Origin: Okamejei kenojei
Lineage: Eukaryota
DNA length: 64,000 nt
Reading direction: 5' to 3'
Assembly (NCBI GenBank): GCA_035221665.1
Contig: CM069166.1
Location: forward strand, 9,486,001 to 9,550,000
Shown here one piece after another: positions 13,910-62,810 of this stretch (its first letter is position 1; every line of letters starts with the position of its first letter). Made by a program: the position numbers and the translations under genes. Below the pieces are notes generated by a model. That model saw only the letters and a list, made by a program, of their open reading frames with translations. It was not told where the DNA came from and did not search any database.

Positions 13910-14054
13910 CTATTTCTCAGGCTCAGCAGACGTGGAGATCTCTTCGCGAACAGCCTCCACCTTCGGGAAGTTCACGTCCAGGATGTGTCGCTGAAGGTGT
14001 CTCACCCATTCTTCCTGAATTGAGAGAGGCCCATGGAACTCCACATCACAAAAC
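13910..14054 (-). CDS. WIZ: WIZ last coding exon (exon 10): C-terminal zinc finger
   Basis: aag|G TTT TGT...; (R)FCDVEFHGPLSIQEEWVRHLQRHILDVNFPK...EPEK*, matching the WIZ C-terminal finger known to bind G9a/GLP. Confidence 0.95.
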
Positions 14055-14355
14055 CTTTTGGGAAGGAAAGATGCCAATGTTAATCTAATCAACTCACGAC
14101 TTGCCTGAAATGTTATCACACCATCCCATCCAGCAACCGCATCTCAACCCATTCACACCCAAAAGTGCTGTTCTGCAACACTATTGCCACAGCAGAAAGG
14201 TGTCACCAGTTCAATATCCTGGAATTCTTGCCATAACACCATTAGGTTTAAGGATGTTCTGAGAGTTAGAGATGAGCAAAAAACAAAACTCACCCAAGCC
14301 CAAATTTCATGGACCAATGGTTAAACGCATTTCACTGTGAAGGCAGAGCACTCAC

Positions 14356-22131: not shown

Positions 22132-24539
22132 GCACAAAGCAAAATGAAGGCAAACAAAACTCTACATTTCAGCTTCTTTCATTGTTGATATGAGGATACT
22201 CATCTCAAGTATGGGTTTTTAGTTAATTTGCTGGAGATAATTCCAGGTTGCAGAGACGTGGTTAATTACAGCTTCAGTGCAGGAACTAATAGAGTTATTA
22301 AATGCAGTGTTGTTGAAACAGTCATGCAATCAAGAATAATGCCTAACACTAAAGAAATCTCTGGAGCATCTGCGCAGTCCTCCAATCTTCAAGGAAATAA
22401 ATCTTGCACATCATAAATATTTGTGGCCATGCTGCTGACCAAGTTATAGATCTAAACAAGAGCCACATTAAATGGTGAACTTCCATCAAATCAAAATGAA
22501 GAGTCTCTGACTATAAAAGTAGAGGTTAGCTTACCTTCAATTATGGACAAATATTTTTATGAATTTAAATTTTGAATGATGACATTTTTTGATACTTTTA
22601 TGCATTCTTGGGTCAAAACTTTTATCCTTCCAACTTATATCACTATTTATCTTACTTGAGAACGTGCACTAAATTAAATAGCTTTTTAGCGTAGATTTCC
22701 TTGCAATATTAGTTTTTGTACTTTTTTTTAACCTTTTACTTGCATGAATTAAAATGTTTACTGGGTTTTATCCCTCAAGTTTCTTTTAGAATGGAAAGTG
22801 TCAACGAATTAGAAACTCAAAGGTTAGAAATACTGCTGGAATATTTAATATTTAAAAATGCCTTAATTATGATTTCCCATTCCTCACTTCTAGTCTTGCT
22901 ATTACCTTTCATAGCTTTTGACAATTCATAGAATTTAGCAAATTTAGTGAAGTGTTTGGTGTGGGGAAAAAAATGTATACTGATTTTTTGTTTGATCAAT
23001 CATCTCCCAAGCATCAATGGCAGAACTGGAAACCCAAAATGAAAAGTAGGAATTTTCTCCAGGTGCTCTCAAACAAAAGTAATTTAGGCCTGCAAAAATA
23101 CTTGCATAATACCAAGTAAATGAGTATTGTTGTTTTATTCAATTAATCTGACATCAGCACCTGAACCTTCTGAACAGGTATAGATTAAGAGTTTGATAAA
23201 TCATTTTGGCTGCTATTAACGGATGCAGCCGGTTCCTCTTATTATTTTATTGTTGCTTCACTCCTATCCAAATTTAGTCGTTAGTCTGAACAAGTCTACT
23301 GACTCCTGAGTGCAAAGTCCACATTTTCAACACCAGAGGGCTGAAGATTTACCTGAATATTAACCGACCGTGATCTTTTAATGTTTAAAGCTAGCTTTAC
23401 ATAAAATGAGAGAGCCAGAAAAAAATTCAAATTTCACATGGGTACCTCCATGAAGTAAAGATTAAAGCTTGTTCTGGTCACTAATTCTTCTGCTATTTTC
23501 CACTGTTCACTTCAACCATTCATCTCACGTTGACAAACTTTCTAACCTTAATCAGCAAGGTGGATAAAGAGGTGTCTCCTCGCAGTAACTAACTATCTGT
23601 GCTTATGCTAGAAAGAAACACGATGAGGAAATATCTATAATGATACTCCCAACCATTCCATGGGGATTAATAACTAACTTATATCATATGGAAAATAACC
23701 ATAGTCAGAGTCATACCCTTTGGCCCAACTTGCCCATTCTGACCAAGCTGCCCCCAACTAGTGCCACCTGCCCGCGTTTGGCCCATATCTCTCCAAGCAT
23801 TTCCTATCCACGTACCTGTCCAAATGTCTTTTAAATATTGTTATAGTACTTGCCTCAACTACTCTCTTCTGGCTGCTGGTTGCATTTACCCACCACCCTC
23901 TACGTGAAAACAACCACTTGGAACATAGCAGATAAATATCAGCCAGTAATAGCTTAACTACAATCCAAAAATGAAGAAAGACATGGTGGGGGAGTTAGAA
24001 TACGCTTAGATTGACATCTAATTTGGAAAAGTTATTAGAATATGCATATCAGCACTGAAATACAAAGCACTTGCAGAAATTTAGGTAAATTAAAGACATA
24101 AGCCAGGGTCGATCAGTAGGGCATTCCAAATAACAATAATAAAAAGTGAGGAGCCAAATTGTGACATGGAGTTGTTCATTAATTTATTCTTGACTAAGTT
24201 CTAGAAAGGTTAGAATCTACTGAGTTAAAATAATGTTTGTATTTGAAGGTATATAATCAATCAATTTAGGTGGATGGTTAGGCAATATAAGGCAGACTGC
24301 AGGGACAGTGGGTATAGAATCAAAGTGAACGTTTACAGGGAGAATGGGATTGGGGAGGGGGTGGGGGGGAAAAAGATCAGCCATCACCAAATGGTGGAGC
24401 ATGTTCGATGGGCTGAAAGGCCTTTCTCTGCTCCTATGTCTTATGGAAAGTGACTAGTGGAATTTTAAAAGACTACTTGGCAATTCCACTTATTAATGAT
24501 TGGGATAATATATTAGAGAACCAAACATCAAAGTTTGCT

Positions 24540-24760
24540 AGGGTTACGCAAAAAGCTGGAGAAACTCAGCGGGTGCAGCAGCATCTAAGAGGCGAAGGAG
24601 ATAGGCGACGTTTCGGGTCGAGACCCTTCTTCAGACTGAAGAAGGGTCTCGACCCGAAACGTCGCCTATCTCCTTCGCCTCTTAGATGCTGCTGCACCCG
24701 CTGAGTTTCTCCAGCTTTTTGTGTAACCCTCGATTCTCCAGCATCTGCAGTTTCTGCGTT
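24540..24760. mobile_element. Palindromic Penelope terminal-repeat element, hammerhead core on both strands
   Basis: 95-bp arms (24540-24634 / 24636-24730) with one mismatch, ~30-nt unpaired tail, imperfect flanking duplication AACATCA(AA)GTTTGCTA. Confidence 0.9.
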
Positions 24761-25339
24761 AACATCAGTTTGCTAACTAGTTAATGCAATGGTAAGTAGT
24801 GCAAACAGAAATACAAAATTATGTTGACTGATTTAATAAACAGGTAAAACTGTGGCAAAACACATTGATTAAAGGGAAGGCTGTCTACACAAAAAGCAGA
24901 CAGGTACTTGTAAGTGGATTGAAAAGGAAAAAAAATGCTCATCTACACTTTGCTAAAATATCTATCTTTATGCGCAAGCAGCTAAAATTGCTGCCAAACC
25001 ATGGATGTCATATGTATTGTGACTAAACCCTAACATATCATTGCAACTAAACCCAAATAAAAGGACAAATTTCCTGGTCTGTACATATCAAGATAAACTA
25101 ATAACACTACCAACATTGTGGATGTCACAACATGGCCAGTATATTTTGATCATTGATAAATGTTGTCATTTCAAAAGTCTGCTCCACTTAGAAGGGCAAT
25201 GGTGTGCCTTTCACAAGAGCAATGCAACGGCAACACCGCTTGCCAAGCCGGTCAATACATGTAATCAGGGCTACGTAATGAAGTAAGATGTTGTTCCTCA
25301 AGTACCCAACTGCAGTCACACACTCTAGCTAGTATCTGG

Positions 25340-25734: not shown

Positions 25735-25980
25735 GGGTGGCACAGCGGGTAGAACTGCTGCCTCACAGCGCCAGATGTCACAGGGAGAAGGCAGGAGAAT
25801 GTGGTTAGGAGGGAGAGATAGATCAGCCATGATTGAATGGCGGAGTAGACATGATGGGCCAAATGGCCTAATTCTATTCCTATCACTTATGATCTTATGA
25901 TGATTCTGACCTAGGGTGCTGTCTTTGTGCGTATATGCACGCTCTCCCTGTTTCCTCCTGGTGCTCTGGCTTTCATTAAC
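25735..25980 (+). mobile_element. V-SINE head interrupted by a CR1 3' tail (about 25780-25900)
   Basis: GGGTGGCACAGCGGGTAGAACTGCTGCCTCACAGCGCCAGA, then GATCAGCCATGATTGAATGGCGG...CTTATGATCTTATGA, then the SINE resumes. Confidence 0.7.
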
Positions 25981-27360
25981 TACAGTTATGACAAAGATTC
26001 AATGTTGAGGATTCAATGTTTTGCAGTTCTCCTGCTGTGTACAGCAGGATTGCCATGTAAAAATAATGCAACGGATGAGTGTCCAACAAATTGCTGAAGA
26101 GGACAATACAAAATCAAATTCCAGATCTTATTTTATATTTTCATTTATTTATTTTTTAAAAAGGGAAAATGATTTGAGAACATGATAGTTGAAAGCCATT
26201 TTGACTGCTAAAACTAAATGGGTAATTTATTCTAAACACTGCTGAGATTTCGAAGTATTTGGTGAAAATTCAGTCTCCTCGGGCAGGGAATGGAGAGATA
26301 CGGATAATGTGCAGCTCAGAGTTGGGACTATGCATCCTGTTGTGGGCCGAAGGGCTTGTTCCTGTGCTGTTCTGTTCTACATTCATTAATCTGTCCCAAG
26401 GCAAAAACAGAGCCATGACAGAAAGCTAAAAAAAAGGGAAGATTGAGTCCTGGTAAAACAACTTCAAAGACTTTTATTTTAATAATCAGAGCTACACTGC
26501 ACTTGCAGTAAACATGCAAGTGCAGTAAACACAGAGCTCATTCAACAGGCCATTTGCAACAGTTCACGAGGATGAATAACTACCAGTTAAGAAAAATCAG
26601 CAATGGGTAATAAATGCTAGCCTTGTCAGTAGTGCTCATATACTGAGAGCAAATTAGGAAACAAGAATTGGAGACTGAAAATGGTAGTTGCATAAATATT
26701 ACCAGATAAAATGTAATGCACTCATGTGGATTTTGGGATATTGGTTTGCAACGGATGTCCCTCAGTTTAAATAGGTATACCGGAAAATATCAAGGTAAAA
26801 TCAAACAGAAAATCTCATTAAATTTGCTGTTAGAAGTGCATGGGTCCACCTTCTGAGGAGTTTTTAAACAATTGCCAGTGTACCAGCTTATCTAGGATTT
26901 TAGTACGGAAATATTTATGTAACTTTGAAGAGACGTTATAAATATTGGGCAAACTTTCAACCTCTCCCCCATCCAACAGCGATACATCATTCAGCGACTA
27001 AGGCAACTGAACTAACAGCTTCTAAATAGTCAGATGCTATCAATATGGTGTTACAAGTTCCAGGACATTGTTAGTGAGGGTTAGGTATCTGCCATAACTA
27101 GTCTTCTGCACCAAAATTACAGAAGAACAAAAACATTATTAAAATGTAAAGAAGTCCTTAGTTTTTTTTTAGCTGAAAGGGCTTCACAGGAACTGGCTCT
27201 TAAAGTGGTAGGTGAAATCTGACAGTTAGCCTGTCTTTATTTGGAGTTCCAACCTACGCCTTTAAGATGAGAACGCTGCACAGAAACAAGTGACCAATTT
27301 TTCTTTTTCTTTTTTATAATTATGTGAACATGTTTGCTTAAACACCAAACACAAACTTAC

Positions 27361-27855
27361 TTCTCTTTTTCTTTGGATGGGGCTCCTCGTCCTCGGATGG
27401 CATGGAGGAGCTTGGGGTGCATTCAGTTATGTTGCTTTGGCTCAGATCAGTGGGAGTGTAGCACTCGTTCGGAGGCATTTTGTCTGTCTCTGGATTCTTC
27501 TGCACCGGTGAGGTTGGGAAGCCCAGCTCTACTGTTTTGGGCTGCACCGGCTCCAACTTCACTGTCTTACCCCCTGGTAATGAACACAGCTCCCCTGGCA
27601 ACTCCTTAACTTTTTCTATTGATTTGATATTGTTTCTGATGGGCTTTGGAAGGGGGCGATCCTGCACACAGTTCACAGAGGTACCGGGACTAATATTGGG
27701 CTTCTGGCGGATCCATTCCCTCAGGGTGTCTATCGGTGAGCCGTTGATGTGCCATTCAGTCACCCCGAACTGTCTGAGATGGGCTCTGGCATGGCTGGCT
27801 AAAGCTTTCCGGTTTTCAAAGTAGTGGCCGCATAATTCGCAGCAAGTGTCTGCAG
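27361..27855 (-). CDS. WIZ: WIZ exon 7 (zinc finger CCELCGHYFENRKALASHARAH; PTDLS motif)
   Basis: cctgcag|CT...AGA A|gtaag; 495 nt, phase 1->1; within ORF 27338..27880. Confidence 0.95.
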
Positions 27856-29605
27856 CTGCAGGGAAGAGACCAGGACACAAATCAACTTCTTAATGTGGCT
27901 CCAGTCGCTTCATTATGCAGCTATCGTTCAAATGAAATTAATGTACAACAGTCCCAATTGTAAAGACTGGAGTTTGTTCTGTACATGCTGAGCTAAGATA
28001 TTTGGTGCATAGACGGTGGTTAGTCCAGCCATTAAGCCAATGTCAAATTATCAACATTTAAACCAGTCCCAATCATCTGCTCATCTACCTTTATAAATGA
28101 CATTTATCAAATATTTATCCATCGTCCTCCCAAAGTGCATTATTATGTGTGTCAGGGAGCATTCTCCTTATCCTAATAAACCTGTGCTTACATAAGCTTA
28201 TAATTCTGCCCTCTTATTAAAACCCTTTTGAATTGAACTACAGGGTACTAAAACCATTTTGAATTCAACTACAGCTCCCACCATCCAATCTTAATGGAAA
28301 AATGCTCCATGAGATGACGTGGATTCCAGTGCATAAATCTGCAGAGAAGCGAATTGTCGGTTCAGTGTGGGCTTTTCCTGTTGGCGGAGTAAGTAAAGAA
28401 AATGACTCTGAGGTACTGGCCAGGGATGGTTTCTGTGTTGAGTTAGCTGGTCTCAGCCAGGAACAAAGTGGGAGAACTACAAGTGAATGGACAACCTGTT
28501 GGGGCAAAGGAGGAGATTAAATTAAATCTTGTTGGGATTTCTTATGATATGCGACAGGACTTAGGGCAAGGTCAAGATCAGACCCAGTTGCATTGCTCTC
28601 CGTGGTTTAAATCTGTAGATATTCTCAGTCTCGGGCTCCAATGTGAAGAATGCATACATAAAGGACTGGTCCCAACCTTAAGACCTGCAAACGAGAAAGC
28701 CAGTGCCTGAAGGAGACAAAGAGAAACTGGAAAAAACACAAGTAAAATAAGAATTGCCTTTCCACACAACGAGTTTGCTTCATCAAGACAAGAGATTGTT
28801 TTCTAATTACTCTACTTTGAGCGCTTAAATGTCCAGTTAATGCTTAATATCAAAGAGTTCATGCAAGATACCTGCAGTTTAAACTCCCACCCTTGGGCAC
28901 TAATACCATAAGAAATATAAATACAGCGATATTTAGTGGAATAAAAATGGCTTTTTTATAGATTTGAATAAGTAATTTTACCTCTTGTTGTTTCCACCTG
29001 CTGTTAATAATTGAGAGATGAGCAGATGAAACCCATAAAGAAGAAACTCAAACGAAACAGTACTGTTATCTCAAAATGTAAAGATAATCAAGTAGATTAT
29101 TAATGCATCATGGTATCCAAAAGATTGAAATTTGTTTAAGGCCAATCCTTTTCAATAAAATAAATGAATACCAGCCTTGAAATACAGCTGTACTCATTAT
29201 GAGGAGTTTTTTTGTTTAACAATGCACAACTTTAACGGTGTGCAGCCATTCATCTGTCTTCATTGCTGAAGAAATAGGTCCAGAAAATGTCACCTTGTCA
29301 TGTAGGTGTCACCTTGACTGTTAAGCTCTTGACAGCCTTTCAACTTTGCAATATTTTCTCCCTCATGAAAAGCTGCACAAATTAGCTTCAGCTTCTCTCC
29401 AGGAAACTCAAGGTGTGCTTCTATGCATGGTCGGGTCAGTGTACACAGGTTGTAAAGAAAATGGGATAACCTGGGAATTTTTCTTGCAAACAGCTGCTGA
29501 GAAGCAATCCCAGATGTACAGAGCAGCCTGCCCACTGATCAATAATATGGTACCATAACATGCAGCACGGTGAAAGAAAATAGTACTCGAAATAGACTGA
29601 CTTAC

Positions 29606-30157
29606 CAATTACCGGTGTCGTTGTCACCTTCTCCTGTGGAGACCAAGTGGCCTTCGGCTTATAGGAACCCGATTCCGTGTAGCTGGGCTTCAATTCATGT
29701 GTCATGGCTCTTTCATCTGGCATGGATTTCTTTAGTGATGCAGTCGATACAAAACCCATGGGTATTTTCTTTCCCAGAGGTGACAAGGTTGGATGTTGGC
29801 TGTTAGGTGTATAGGTCAATACTTTTCTAGTTGGGGCTGTCAGATGCTTTTGATGCATCACCTTAACGGGTGACTTAATAATATGTCCAAATGGCTTAGC
29901 AATGGGTTTCTCCTCGTATTTGTAGTTCTGGGGGTCTTGTTGCAGCCCCTGTTGCTCTGGGTCGTGGCCAAATGGTTCATGCTTCCCCTTTCTTTTCATC
30001 AGCTCCTTTAGTGTGTCAATTGGTGAACCGTTCACTGTCCATTCAGTCACCCCAAACTGCCTCAGATGCGACCTGGCATGGCTCGACAGTCCCTTGCGAT
30101 TCTCAAAGTATTCACCACAGAATTCACAACGGACATCTTTGCTAGGTTGATCAACTG
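29606..30157 (-). CDS. WIZ: WIZ exon 6 (zinc finger CEFCGEYFENRKGLSSHARSH)
   Basis: ggcag|CAG...ATT G|gtaag; 552 nt, phase 1->1; within ORF 29436..30164. Confidence 0.95.
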
Positions 30158-31314
30158 CTGCCAAAACAAAGACATTTGATCTGAGATTTAATTTGAAGGA
30201 AGACTCTTATAAGATGAACTGAAAGTAAAATAAGTGAGGTGGGGGGGTGGGGGGGTGGAAGAGGGGGAAAATATGACGAATATGAAATATTTTAGTTAAT
30301 AACCTACATCGTGTATTAACATTGAAAAGCCAGGCTAAGACCAAAATCTTCCTTTTCTCAGTGAGACATTTACAATTGCCACACCACAACCACCCCCGAT
30401 TCTTGATTATCAAGAACAGTATTATCATTTAAGTGCTTCCAAATTTTAAATATATTTTTCTTAGACAAAGTGAACCTGATAATTCCCTGAATCAAAGATT
30501 CCCGAGCTGTGTTGTTTATCATGGGATGGGGAGAGATACACAAGATAAATTGTGCAATGAAAGATTCACTGAGGCTTGGGTATTTAACACAGGGGGAGGT
30601 CAGGATGTTGAATAGATAGATGTTAATAATAGGCACATAAGGGTTAAAGTATAAAACATTTGCCAGTTGAAGTAAGCAGAATAGCTGGTTAATCTGGAAC
30701 AATGTAATAAATTATCAATGTATGAGATAATGAATTACTCCAGCACTTTGTGATTATCAATGTATCACCTATGTACAGAGGAGGAGAATGGAAAGCCTTG
30801 TTCTATCTATCAAAATTTAAAACCCACTGAAATGTTGGGCCAGTTAGTTGTTGGGCATTTTCTAATGTTTATACTTGCTGCTCTTGTAAATTGAAAACGC
30901 ATGTGTAACAAAAGCTTCTTCACGAGGTGGACCGGATTCAGACCATCAGACTTCTTGCTGTGTGTAATATAAGCTGCTCTGCAGAACATTAAATATCATT
31001 AAATACTCAGTAACTCAGTGGGTCAGACAGCATCTATGGAGAACATGGATAGGTATTCACCAGAGATGCTGCCTGACCCACTGAGTTTGCGCCTTTTTTT
31101 TGGTAAACCTGCGCCTGCAGTTCCTTGTGTGCTCATTTAAACGTCTGGACAAACAGCTAAATCAATATCCACGCAGAAACACACCTGTGAAACTGTCCTA
31201 TACCCCTTTCGTTAGCATGTCTTCCCCAGCCAACAATGGGCCATAATCGACTCTATTCTCCCCGAGGTCATCTGTTGCCAGACACCATTATTCTGGCCTT
31301 TTCTCGCTTCCAGG

Positions 31315-34580: not shown

Positions 34581-35764
34581 ACTTTCTAATTCATATTTAT
34601 ATTCTCTGATTTTTTTTTGCTTATTTGCCCTCATAACTTGCATGGTTAATTATTCAAGAATCCGATTCAAAATAAGCCCTCAATGCTTTGGCATAAAAGC
34701 TAACCTAAGTGGTGTGCTGATAGAATTAACCTTAAATGCTGGCTATTCTTTCAAAGACCCAGTGGCGCTTTTTGAGGAGCAGGGTGGCCTTTGGTGGAAA
34801 GCAGTGAAGGAAGACACTCTGTTACAAGGTCAAGATGCTGAGGTTGTCCCTACCTCAACCTCCCTCCCCGTTACCACTCCATCCTGCATATATTCACTGA
34901 AAAGCAGTACTGTTTACAAGAGGAGATAAAAGAACAAGAGCCACAAATTTGACTCCGCTATATTTTATTATACGGTCTGATACCGATGAGAATAAGCTTG
35001 TTTTAAAAGTAAAGATGCTCTGACCTTTCCTCCAAGGGCTACACATAGACTTGGCCCTCATTTGCAAGAAAATGAGTGAAAGTATACACTAGAGTTCCAC
35101 AAACAAGTCCTGTAAATCCAAATGCGTTGAAAGATGAATATACTTTATGTTTAAAGCGATAATCACTATTTCAAGGCACATTCAAAAGTACTTAACATGG
35201 ATAGTAATTACCAAGTATTAATGGTAACATTTACTATCCAAATCCTGTGTGCCTCAGTTAAAATGTATTTGGTTTATATTAGAAATGGATATGGACTGGA
35301 CGATTTAAACTATATTAAAAAGAAAATAATTTCAGCTAATTTTTAAAGCACTGCGCTTCATTGGATAAGCTAAAATTTGCAAGTCTACATTTGGAATTCT
35401 CATTCCATAGGATATTTATGTTTTCCACCACTGCTCTAGATCAATAAATTTCTAGTTCATTAGACCACATTAGCCATCACACGGAGCACATATGGTAGCT
35501 GGAAGACCGATTACTGTGACATACCACAGAAAAGGACAGAGAATTCAAGAGAAAAGGAATTAAGAGGGCAGAGCAATCCATATAATTGAATGAGTTATTA
35601 GCTTATCTAAAATCTGCGGGCAACCCACCACGAAGTTTTACCATTTACATGACTTGCGCTACCTTTTATTCCACATATATATATGTAAAACTTCCACTAA
35701 TTTTCAAGAGCACAATAAACACATTTTCTGCTTGTGTCTCGGCAACAGGGAATTAAAAACCTAC

Positions 35765-36310
35765 TTAAATGGAGGGGTGAAGCTTCTCCTCTGGGTGGCC
35801 ACATTTGTTCTGGTAAGTAACTGTCGCTCTTCAGTGAAGTTGCTGGCTCTTCGGGGTTATACTCTATTTTGAAATGTTCCTGTTTCACCCTTTTCAGCGG
35901 GTTCGGTTTCATCTTTTTCAATGGTGACGGGGAGAGAAATTGGCCCTGAACCTTTTTGGGTAGGAGTGATCCCGATGGAACCTGCCGGACGGATGGAATG
36001 GTCAGACTGAACTTAGTTGATTTACCCGTAGCGGGCGAGAAAGTATGCGTGTTCTCAGTTGGTGATTTCATGCCAGTTGCCACTGGCTTTGGGGACACTT
36101 TGAGCCCAGGTGTGACAGATGATTCAAAAGGATGCATTTTCCTTTTCATGAGCTCCTTCAATGTGTCTATTGGCGAACCATTAACTGTCCATTCGGTCAC
36201 CCCAAACTGCCTCAGGTGTGACCTTGCGTGACTTGACAGCCCCTTGCGGTTCTCAAAGTAATCACCGCAAAATTCACAACGCGTCTCTTTGCTAGGCGTT
36301 GAATCAATCG
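35765..36310 (-). CDS. WIZ: WIZ exon 5 (zinc finger CEFCGDYFENRKGLSSHARSH)
   Basis: tacag|CG...TTA A|gtagg; 546 nt, phase 1->1; includes most of ORF 35697..36200; ends ...SPLHL. Confidence 0.95.
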
Positions 36311-37349
36311 CTGTAAATAAAAAAAAGGGGAAATTGCAATGAACATTTTTTCATATATGACTTCCCCTTAAACATAAGTGAAATTGATTGGTCCACTTTA
36401 GGTCTCCTTATGCCATAAGCCTTTCCTTGATTTGATGAGCAAGCAGGCGACAGGACAATGCTGTGTAAATTAAGCACAGGAAGAAAGTGGTCTAGGTTAT
36501 TTTCATGCATTCCCAAGGAGAAACACTTGGTGTTCACATGCCACAACCAGGGTTTGGCATAAGGAATGTACAGCAAATCGTAGGATGGGGCTTAACATCA
36601 GCTATAACATGCAGCATAACTTGGTCACAATCACCCCCACCCTGTAACCCTCCCCTCAATTCACAACTCTAATTTACCCATCTTTCTCTTCCTAAAATAT
36701 GACCACGGCAGTCTTGTGTCCAGTGACTCAAGCAACTAGACACAGCAACTTTGTCAGCTCACATGAACGATCATTTATCTTGTTTGTGAGCCCAGACATC
36801 AAATGCCAGAAGTCTTCTAAAGCATCATATAAAAAGCCACCAGCATCTATTTGATATGGAAGGCAATACTCTGCAACCAAATCATGGGTTTTATTTTATC
36901 TTCTCATCTAAAGTGAAATAACCCAGCAGATTTGGACTTGACTCAAGGTCCTTAGATCCCGTAAGAATCACTACACACGGCAGCATTTTTAATCCATTAC
37001 AAAACTGAGGGAACAGAAACGGTCAATCGGAATTTCTCCACGCATCTCATGACAAAGTGCTCAAGAATACTCTACGCTTAAGAATCAGAAAAGGCTGCAA
37101 GGTCATCAACAAAAGATGGATTTGACTTATTTTACAATTTCAAATGGCTGAAGTACATACCAAATCACCAATTACAATAAAATTGGAAACTTACTTTGCG
37201 CATTGAAACTCTTGGACACAATATATTAAGTACTTCAGTACATCAGATTATTTAAAAGTGCTCCTTTTCTAATCAATTCACAATACTATTTTTCCAGCAT
37301 TATTTTCTGCATTCTTGCTTTCAGACATATGGCTGTGCATTCTATCAAC

Positions 37350-48723: not shown

Positions 48724-48899
48724 GGAGGCAGACAAAAATGCTGGAGAAACTCCGGGTGAGGCAGCATCCATGGAGCGAAGGAAATAGGCGACGTTTCGGG
48801 TCGAGACCCTTCTTCAGACCCATTAAAATAACTGTCCTGTCTATCATAAATACCTATCCCGCTGAGTTACTAGTTACTCCAGCATTTTGTGTCTACCTT
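48724..48899. mobile_element. Penelope terminal-repeat insertion flanked by 13-bp duplication CACTAAAATAACT
   Basis: Duplication at 48711-48723 and 48900-48912; a third variant copy lies at 48821-48833. Confidence 0.8.
48783..48824 (-). ncRNA. Minimal type I hammerhead ribozyme motif in WIZ intron 2 (sense to WIZ)
   Basis: Minus strand AAUGGGU-CUGAAGA-A-GGGUC UC GACCC-GAAA-CG-UC-GCCUAUU: intact core, stem II, 7-bp stem I with two G-U pairs; stem III reduced to the palindrome ACGU. Activity untested. Confidence 0.7.
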
Positions 48900-57253: not shown

Positions 57254-57735
57254 TAGGTAGACACAAAAAGCTGGAGTAACTCAGCATCTCTGGAGAGAAA
57301 GAACTGAGATGCTGCCTGTCCCGCTGAGTTACTCCAGCATTTTGTGTCTACCTTCGATTTAAACCAGCATCTGCAGTTCTTTCCTAGAAATGTTGAAGTA
57401 AATTGAATTGTGTTGTCAATATTTCCTGTCAGGAAAGCTTCTGTGAAGAAGATTTTAGACAGTTGTGTAGGAAAGAACTGCGGATGCTGGTTAATAAACC
57501 GAAGATAGACAAAGATCTGGAGTAGACACAAAATGCTGGAATAACTCAGCATCTCTGGAGGGAAGGAATGGGTGATGTTTCGGGTCGAGACCCTTCTTCA
57601 GACCGAAAGTCAGGGGGAAAGGAAACAAAATATGGCAGTCTGAAGTAGGTCGACCCGAACGCTACCTATTCCCCTTCTCCAGAGATGAGGCCTGACCCGC
57701 TGAGATACTCCAGCCTTTTCTGTCTATCTTCTGTC
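57254..57735. mobile_element. Two adjacent Penelope terminal-repeat elements (57254-57387 with 12-bp TSD; about 57465-57735 with - strand hammerhead core 57574-57601)
   Basis: AAATGTTGAAGT at 57242-57253 and 57388-57399; inverted arms read directly. Confidence 0.8.
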
Positions 57736-57889
57736 TATGATGTTGGACAGTTAATAGCTTGTAAAACCTATATAGCCCAGCAACCATTGAATGTACATAT
57801 GAAACTGAAACTGTTTATGTGTATTAAATGTTGATGCCAGTTGCCTAGTTTATGAATGTAATAAACTAGGCAACAGAACACTATAACAA

Positions 57890-58200
57890 TGGACCTTTCT
57901 GTCCTGGGCCTCCTCCATGGCCAGAGTGAGTACCACCACAAATTGGAGGAGCAGCACCTCATATTTCCCTTGGGTAGTTTGCACCCCAGCGGTATGAACA
58001 TTGACGTCTCCAATTTCAGGTAGTCCTTGCTTTCTCCCTCCTTCCCCTCCCAGCTCTCCCACAGCCTCTTCCTTTCTTCTTCCTGCCCCCCCCTCCACAT
58101 CGGTCTGTTAGAAGGGTCTCGACCCGAAACGTCACCTATTCCTTCGCTCCATAGATGCTGTCTCACCCGCTGATTTTGCTCCAGCATTTTTGTCTACTAT
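57890..58200 (+). mobile_element. Penelope-like element 3' end: endonuclease C-terminus + terminal repeat with degenerate hammerhead
   Basis: DLSVLGLLHGQSEYHHKLEEQHLIFPLGSLHPSGMNIDVSNFR*, then a pyrimidine tract, then CTGTTAGAAGGGTCTCGACCCGAAACGTC (58105-58133). Confidence 0.85.
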
Positions 58201-61465: not shown

Positions 61466-62045
61466 AGTGTTAAAGAAGGAACTGCAGATGCTGGAAAATC
61501 GAGGGTTTACACAAAATGCTGGAGAAACTCAGCGGGTGCAGCATCATCATCTATGGAGCGAAGGAGATAGGCAACGTTTCGGGCCGAAACCCTTCTTCAG
61601 AGTAGTGTATGGAGGAACTGCAGATGCTGGTTTAAACCGTAGACAGACACAAAATGCTGGAGTAACTCAGCGGCACAGGCAGCATCTGAAAAAGGGTCTT
61701 GACCCGAAACGTCACCCATTCCTTCTCTCCAGAGATGCTGCCTATCCCGCTGAGTTACTCCAGCTTTTTGTGTCCATCTCCCAACAACACGAGTACGTTT
61801 GAAGAGTCTGAAGAAGGGTCTCGTCCCGAAACATCGGCCATTCCTTCTCTCCAGAGATGCTGCTTGACCCACTGAGTTACTCCAGCTTTTTGTGTCCATC
61901 ATGAGTATGTGTAGTTTAGGAAGGAACTGTAGATGCTGGTTTAAACCGAAGATAGACACAAGAAGCTGGAGTTATTCAGTGGGTCGGGCAGCATTTCTGG
62001 AGAAGAAGAATAGGTGACGTATCGGGTCGAGTCCCTTCTTCAGGC
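61466..62045. mobile_element. Cluster of about 5 Penelope terminal-repeat units in mixed orientation immediately upstream of the WIZ promoter
   Basis: Repeated GGAACTGCAGATGCTGG and GAGTTACTCCAGC units; hammerhead-like cores at 61573-61600(-), 61686-61713(+), 61808-61835(+), 62016-62043(-). Confidence 0.85.
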
Positions 62046-62089
62046 AGATACTCTGAAGCTGGCATACTGATAGTCTGATAGCTAGTATG

Positions 62090-62393
62090 TTTAGTTTAAT
62101 TTGGTTTAGAGATACACTGCAGAAACAGGCCCACCAAGTCTGACTGACTAGCGATCCCTGCAAATTAACACAACCCTACCCAAACCTGGGACAATCTTTT
62201 ATATTTACACCAAGCCAATTAACCTACAAACGTGCACATCTTAACCTACAAAACAAATATCTCAGAGAAAAACCCATGCAGGTCATGGGGAGAACGTACA
62301 ATCTCTATACAGACATGTATCTGTAGTCCGGGTCTAACCTGGGTCTCTGGCGCTGTAAGGCAGTAGCTCTACTGCTACGCCACCATACCGCCC
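62090..62393 (-). mobile_element. HE1/V-SINE-like SINE
   Basis: Same family motifs on the minus strand. Confidence 0.8.
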
Positions 62394-62404
62394 ATATGTA
62401 TGTA

Positions 62405-62810
62405 TAGGAAGGTAGACCCAAAATCCTGGAGTAACTCAGCGGAACAGGCAACATCTCCGGAAGGAAGGAATGCGTGACGTTTCAGGTCAAGACCCTTCTT
62501 CATACTGAGAGTCTGAAGACTATCGGAAGGAACTGCAGGTGCTGGTTTAAACCGTGGACAGACACAAAAAGGGGGTGGGAGATTGCAACCTTCACGTGGT
62601 CCGCCCTGTTTTGAAGAATGCAATCAACCTGCCGTGCACAATCAAATAAGATCAAATAGAACAAGTTGTCCTACAACTTTAGGTTGTGCACGCCATACGC
62701 AAGAAGAAGAAGACACAAAAAGCTGGAGTAACTCAGCAGGTCAGGCAGCATCTCTGAAGAAAAGGAGTAGGTGATGTTTCGGGATGAGACCCTTCTTGTG
62801 TCTATCTTTC
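62405..62810 (-). mobile_element. Further Penelope terminal-repeat units, one interrupted by a 139-bp insertion
   Basis: Same arm sequence; see finding at 62560-62722. Confidence 0.75.

Follow-up and report, generated by a model that had tools for sequence, protein, structure and literature searches.

Why should a short palindrome in a skate genome carry the same hammerhead-like motif on both of its strands, with its axis of symmetry exactly at the 5' edge of that motif? We addressed this question in Okamejei kenojei (2.76 Gb genome) through one locus in the window, i.e., the whole stretch of 64,000 nucleotides that was analyzed (contig CM069166.1, positions 9,486,001 to 9,550,000), and through its relatives across the genome; positions given below are those of the window. 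The locus consists of two 95-nt arms (24540-24634 and 24636-24730) that differ by one mismatch and surround a single central A at 24635, and both strands, from the first base past the axis, read CTGAAGA-A-GGGTCTCGACCC-GAAA-CG-TC. Both traits had been described in an earlier note on this DNA, the latter as CUGAAGA-A-GGGTCTCGACCC-GAAA-CG-UC, and were confirmed at these positions. The tail of about 30 nt and the imperfect target duplication reported there were also recovered: the tail measures 34 nt (24731-24764) and is restricted to the + arm, and the two sides of the duplication, which differ by a 2-nt indel, span 17 nt (left, 24524-24540) and 15 nt (right, 24761-24775), of which our script scored the 9-nt exact part. 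The components of the locus and its flanking host exons are the following, with element positions counted from the first base past the axis:

13913-14143, - strand: open frame with a downstream host-gene exon, carrying a zf-WIZ domain (E 8.6e-20)
24524-24540, no strand: left target-site duplication, 17 nt, its last base common to the arm end
24540-24634, - strand: untailed arm, element unit +1 to +95, stopping at the short 3' end; a native T precedes it on its own strand
24607-24634, - strand: minimal hammerhead-like core on the host-transcribed strand, with core, stem II, self-complementary ACGU, a putative cut after +28 and a stem I of no more than 2 bp
24635, no strand: symmetry axis, native position -1, the middle of the CAG-T-CTG micro-palindrome
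24636-24730, + strand: tailed arm, element +1 to +95
24636-24663, + strand: minimal hammerhead-like core, in which the stem I pair is impossible (A opposite G)
24731-24764, + strand: Penelope tail, 34 nt, +96 to +129, lying between both 3' ends; in full-length units it runs on into the element body
24761-24775, no strand: right target-site duplication, 15 nt, its first 4 bases common to the tail end
27341-27889, - strand: open frame with the upstream flanking exon of a WIZ-like host gene, a zinc-finger repeat resembling 29439-30206 and 35700-36350

The palindrome is not a chance arrangement, since its RNA hairpin has a predicted energy of -217.7 kcal/mol and a fold z of -27.6 (0/200 shuffles were equally stable), and since 803 exact axis junctions were found genome-wide against 0 in the reversed control. 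Two 81-nt copies of another repeat, 70% identical, flank the locus (24365-24445 and 25811-25891). A domain scan of 99 frames, 84 of them from the window's 392, revealed repeated C2H2-like fingers and a zf-WIZ domain in - strand open frames on both sides of the palindrome; this places the palindrome within an intron of a WIZ-like gene, in line with the earlier note. The exons of this multi-zinc-finger gene extend on the - strand across 13913-46595 and beyond the window (L150:6039-9503). Another of its introns holds a further copy (48732-48824, - strand, core at 48817) with an intact 28-nt core in host sense and no antisense cover; the 7 bases upstream of this core could form pairs with the 7 that follow the cut site, which would make a stem I superior to that of native copies. 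At 61468-62797 and 57261-58196 several arms of mixed ages and both orientations are nested, suggesting insertion into or beside earlier copies.

What the arms derive from is indicated by their relatives. The 25-nt core has 61,070 exact copies genome-wide. Of 30 exact copies of the 95-nt arm, 0/30 form an on-axis palindrome; 8 of these start no more than about 4 nt from CUGA, and most of the others extend upstream into a common sequence, namely the 3' end of an ORF with reverse transcriptase (RT), CxxxxCxxC linker and GIY-YIG. Because arm and tail continue into the bodies of two full-length units, of 3956 nt (L301) and 3969 nt (L303), the arm corresponds to the first 130 nt of a Neptune-like Penelope unit, and by this continuity we assign it to the 5' end of an element of about 3.96 kb. 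An RVT_1 domain with a YIDD motif was detected above cut-off in L301 (E 6.7e-08), and a shorter piece from L146 gave no Pfam match; the GIY-YIG endonuclease in L020 scored slightly below the cut-off (E 3.2e-4; 21.4 against 22.6 bits), its motif being visible in frames of several copies. The linker, upstream of GIY-YIG, matches the CX2-5CxxC criterion for Neptune, and the same linker occurs in Nematis (PMC8557442), so that the likeness is linker-based and does not tell the two apart. The family displays partial tandem/pLTR organization (L301 is a 5' pLTR plus the 3956-nt unit, L303 a tandem with a 3969-nt period) as well as head-to-head pairs. Further, the optional 30-40-bp tail and target-site duplication of EN+ Penelope-like elements are both present, with a 34-nt tail and with scored duplications of at least 9 nt in 26 of 31 young perfect palindromes (the locus and the first 30 of the 163 loci described below), every site being different. 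The Penelope-like origin and inverted pLTR architecture proposed by the earlier note are thus borne out by the RT/GIY-YIG units and the head-to-head pairs.

The arms of this family end at about +94 or +127, two 3' ends that match the tail signature tied in the anole work to two internal RT start sites (PMC11167929). The 3' part of the arm and the tail (24684-24746) folds into a set of nested stems, the short 3' end lying at the base of the inner hairpin; this fold may be an RT initiation structure. In both full units the first ATG, at +51, opens a frame of 41 codons, which overlaps a second ATG near +166; in L301 (G000:C11) and L303 (C5) this frame is possibly an upstream ORF or an intron.

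The motif itself is a hammerhead-like core rather than a complete ribozyme, as judged from its primary and predicted secondary structure. The catalytic core CUGANGA / GAAA / UH, with an extra base before stem II, is present on both strands of the locus. In a sample of 382 motifs selected for this sequence, CGTC follows GAAA in 291, and stem II, closed by G10.1-C11.1, keeps four pairs in 324; its common variants are one-sided wobbles, double compensation being absent among the top 16. The self-complementary ACGU of the 15.2-16.2 palindrome would allow a dimeric stem III. Stem I comprises 2 bp (U-G or U-A, and G-C) in native copies and on the - strand of the locus, and none on the + strand. An Rfam search with the locus and one native copy gave no hammerhead match, only generic hairpins below gathering scores. 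These traits resemble the minimal type I hammerheads of metazoan Penelope-like elements, which share the CUGANGA core, the extra base between 9 and 10.1, G10.1-C11.1 and the palindromic 15.2-16.2, and of which opposite-strand pairs were noted 100-700 bp apart; the skate helix I of 2 bp is like that of D. virilis and unlike the usual 4-5 bp, and helix II has 4-5 bp instead of 7-8 bp (PMC4209133). Single minimal motifs were reported not to cleave and dimers to cleave at a low level (PMC4209133), and the anole hammerhead did not cleave without protein, cleavage being dispensable for insertion (PMC11167929). Cleaved RNA as the template of insertion was considered and rejected, as starts at the putative cut site (+26..+34) showed no enrichment, with 4/101 young arms there against 15 over +4..+58.

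Does the palindrome, then, exist to silence this motif? The earlier note had proposed that the antisense arm sequesters the ribozyme, rendering intronic insertions harmless and thereby explaining their abundance. The site is indeed intronic, and in the predicted hairpin (-217.7 kcal/mol) the core is buried, with a stem II pairing probability of 0 and a cost of 41 kcal/mol for opening the core. However, the abundance is left unexplained, because the palindrome is not the usual form of the family: exact 69-nt young centers occur at 163 loci, so that 326 of 27,536 exact young 34-nt arms, about 1.2%, lie in perfect palindromes, a figure that is somewhat low because both arms were required to be exact. 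Among 101 young arms picked by their 3' part, an unbiased list, a single locus was a perfect palindrome and 74 were single arms; when inverted fragments were sought beside 50 single arms, none was found in 47 and one was found in 3. Close inverted pairs number 2,588; the samples drawn here and below are the first matches on contig C1 or on the largest contigs. Moreover, in 6/18 adjacent pairs one arm starts at or beyond +30 and leaves its partner's core uncovered, the unmasked sense core at 48817 persists in the very same WIZ-like gene, and for single arms, too, the predictions show no stem II (probability 0.006-0.03). The published inactivity of minimal hammerheads as monomers (PMC4209133) or without protein (PMC11167929) likewise counts against a need for silencing. 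Masking by the hairpin is therefore real on paper, rare and probably unnecessary, and its maintenance by selection appears very improbable. The same insertion together with its flanks recurs at several loci (L175/L348, L347/L351, L367/L369/L373/L381 and L354/L357/L359), so that some copies were multiplied as passengers of a different repeat. The copy at the locus is an ordinary one and likely a dead end.

A further trait is the polarity of the arms. Exactly one arm was tailed in 31/31 of the young perfect palindromes, a result with a probability of 0.5^31, about 5e-10, if the arms were independent and both outcomes even. Adjacent pairs of the unbiased set combined a long and a short arm in 17/18 cases, the remaining one being long+long, and the first 50 listed close pairs had one tail in 43, none detected in 7 and two in 0. 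In addition, the center base belongs to the untailed arm in 21 of the 31 perfect palindromes, the locus included, and to the other arm in 10; the untailed arm also reaches farther 5' in 9/11 clearly asymmetric adjacent pairs and in 5/8 off-axis asymmetric close pairs; the 7 perfect palindromes among the close pairs, for which the polarity label is an artefact, were left out of the polarity counts. The locus is a single insertion of a Neptune-like Penelope retroelement in which copies of the first 95 and the first 129 bases of the element stand head to head. We consider it probable that these arose as two cDNAs, each primed on a different strand of one staggered cut, whose 3' ends were then joined.

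A competing explanation is fold-back self-priming, in which one cDNA would hairpin at CAG-A-CTG and copy itself, an endonuclease trimming the second arm at the short end; self-priming was proposed for Penelope elements in PMC3846280 and endonuclease resolution in PMC8557442. This mechanism would account for identical arms and in-register junctions, and agrees with the finding of the same subfamily in both arms of 27/27 pairs typed as young (mixed pairs were 3, all older) and with the extra native bases found on the tailed arm in 6/6 in-register cases, 4 of which are old and have no duplication. However, a copy cannot gain a tail absent from its template, so that fold-back needs the tailed arm as template, and that arm should reach furthest 5' and own the center base; mostly the reverse is seen in the counts above. 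A later inversion between the arms, flipping the center base in two thirds of young copies, seems unlikely. Furthermore, for cDNAs that end at -3 or -4 the predictions show no hairpin at the axis, and one insertion (L367, L369) has an inverted piece barely longer than the tail. Fold-back of one cDNA, one of the origins suggested by the earlier note, thus conflicts with the polarity of tail and center base, and the edge it was meant to explain is also found in single arms (30/74); we regard fold-back as distinctly unlikely.

Still less probable is a palindromic non-autonomous master element, MITE- or SINE-like, spreading as a unit. The 163 loci sharing the same exact 69-nt center and bearing target duplications would fit such an element; against it, several sequence variants are found among the palindromes and recur in ordinary truncated copies, the center base is not fixed relative to the tail (10 vs 21), and junction spacings form a continuum. 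A MITE-like fixed unit was accordingly discarded, as center base and sequence variant differ among copies. A non-LTR retrozyme was discarded as well, the locus being one inverted pair with a duplication as opposed to tandem head-to-tail hammerhead repeats (10.64898/2026.07.22.740005).

Mapping the axis across genomic copies, the check that the earlier note had called for, showed that positions are not random. Among the first 50 listed of the 2,588 close pairs, a sample and not a genome-wide count, 21 are in register (spacing 17), 7 of those perfect, and 29 are off-axis; leaving aside five duplicated loci, the in-register share is 18/45. If the 5' ends observed were joined bluntly, 7.5% of pairs would have spacing 17, as opposed to the 42% seen (p 2e-11). 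The axis is thus favored at the CUGA edge as its modal position, as that note had perceived, but it is not fixed there, contrary to what was claimed.

We attribute this preference to two causes, a hot spot of 5' ends at CUGA and the micro-palindrome CAG-T-CTG, which is native and centered on -1. Regarding the first, the 5' starts of the 101 young arms fall at -5..+3 in 47 cases, at +4..+58 in 15, at -6..-240 in 14 and farther up in 24, these upstream extents being scattered out to about 1500. Since the starts at -5..+3 include those 30 of the 74 arms without an adjacent partner, the edge reflects a general 5'-end hot spot and needs no fold-back. The 11 native upstream bases are kept in 12,955 of 27,536 exact cores genome-wide, some of the remaining cores being explained by mutation and by other subfamilies. 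The same edge recurs in two other subfamilies whose upstream sequence is unrelated (12/30 and 14/30, by eye), and contig joints in public runs lie at -4..-2, although the 21 runs concerned are contigs or unlabelled and the best matches among them are probably DNA. At position -4, where a cap-derived G might appear (n=100, including duplicated loci), the base is G in 36 (p 0.009 vs 25%) but more often A (42), and T in 22. As to the second cause, several in-register junctions retain extra native bases on one side, which is expected if the ends anneal in register.

All subfamilies keep the word YCAGTCT. In the young one a TATA-like word lies about 29 nt upstream of it; two subfamilies lack such a motif. 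Initiators follow the consensus YYANWYY, and we take YCAGTCT, with its A at -3, to fit it. The simplest reading is that the hot spot likely represents the RNA 5' end, with a candidate transcription start in YCAGTCT just before CUGA. A different reading accepts dual priming and places at the hot spot either an RT stop at the edge of a protein-bound hammerhead fold or an RNA processing site, cag|T being splice acceptor-like. We find it doubtful, yet the edge does coincide with the ribozyme boundary in three subfamilies, the upstream sequence is pyrimidine-rich and ends in CAG, an intron of D. virilis ends at helix I (PMC4209133), and the anole hammerhead needs protein (PMC11167929). Against it, native AGT, CAGT or ACCAGT directly follows the target duplication with exon sequence absent, a stalled RT would be expected on the 3' side of the structure and not past it, and starts at the cut site are not enriched, as stated above. 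Splicing into cag|T was specifically rejected: in none of the 30 arms (of 201) whose duplication could be resolved did exon sequence separate it from the core, although this set had been chosen for duplications close to CUGA.

Under the two-cDNA model, which we prefer, the element protein would cut both strands about 14-17 bp apart, and the two 3'-OH ends would be extended from different internal starts, one at about +94 and one at about +127. Whenever these 5'-proximal starts are used, both cDNAs would run off the RNA 5' end, likely the transcription start in YCAGTCT, and their ends could anneal via CAG-A-CTG with a central A-A mismatch, repair completing the palindrome; the masking hairpin would be a by-product. 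As most copies are single arms (74/101), loss of the second cDNA, or failure to make it at all, must be frequent. In the anole the protein cuts and extends both strands, is a predicted dimer, and uses two internal RT starts that bound the tail (PMC11167929). A stricter version is more tentative, and we can neither favor it clearly nor dismiss it: a dimer would extend both strands in a coupled manner, always with one short and one long start, the hammerhead marking the transcript 5' end, strong-stop-like run-off cDNAs of about 100-130 nt producing half of the copies, and closure taking place on a CAG-W-CTG clasp. Counting against the two-cDNA model, the start site did not differ between strands in the anole study, although strands were scored separately there (PMC11167929).

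Much of this architecture is known, as inverted pLTRs, one-end tails, junction palindromes and minimal hammerheads have been described (PMC8557442, PMC3846280, PMC4209133, PMC11167929, PMC2377424, PMC8969392, 10.64898/2026.07.22.740005). The skate element shares with Neptune/Nematis-type EN+ elements the RT, CX2-5CxxC linker, C-terminal GIY-YIG and partial tandems, and also the inverted 5'-truncated copy at the 5' end, the 30-40-bp tail at one end and the hammerhead in the pLTR; the 5'-end pile-up at the hammerhead edge and the in-register axis are not described in the passages of that report compared here (PMC8557442). PAc/Poseidon_Ac of the green anole likewise has two 3' ends bounding a tail near the unit 5' end, a hammerhead just upstream and no sign of cleaved RNA as template, but belongs to the Poseidon clade and starts its ORF in stem II, in contrast to the skate units, where the first ATG (+51) closes after 41 codons; coupling of the two start sites within an insertion is not reported in the parts compared (PMC11167929). 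The Penelope elements of Adineta vaga resemble ours in their head-to-head pLTRs with a tail on one, inverted-junction palindromes, and TATA and initiator-like motif in the pLTR, with duplications of 8-10 bp instead of the mostly 14-17 bp of the skate; their palindromes were read as self-priming on an antisense template, whereas the skate polarity counts favor two separately primed cDNAs (PMC3846280).

A broader parallel is twin priming of LINE-1, in which both cut strands prime cDNA, the two cDNAs join by microhomology and the arms copy different parts of one RNA. In the skate, unlike in LINE-1, one and the same segment is copied into both arms, beginning at two fixed internal starts.

What is added here are population-level counts that give a testable integration model. 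In the literature searched, whose scope lay outside older subscription literature, repeat databases and Figure S2 of PMC11167929 (the PAc genomic ends), we found no report of the 5'-edge hot spot, of strict long/short coupling or of in-register joining. These counts bear on how Penelope-like elements finish insertion, and on why inverted pLTRs bear a tail at one end (PMC11167929, PMC8557442). Tens of thousands of young skate copies yield rules, namely that a pair carries one tail, that the 5' edge lies at the hammerhead and that arms join in register. These rules are testable in the existing in vitro system, and a story of ribozyme masking is not needed. If true, coupled priming would account by one mechanism for tail, inverted pLTR and junction palindromes alike.
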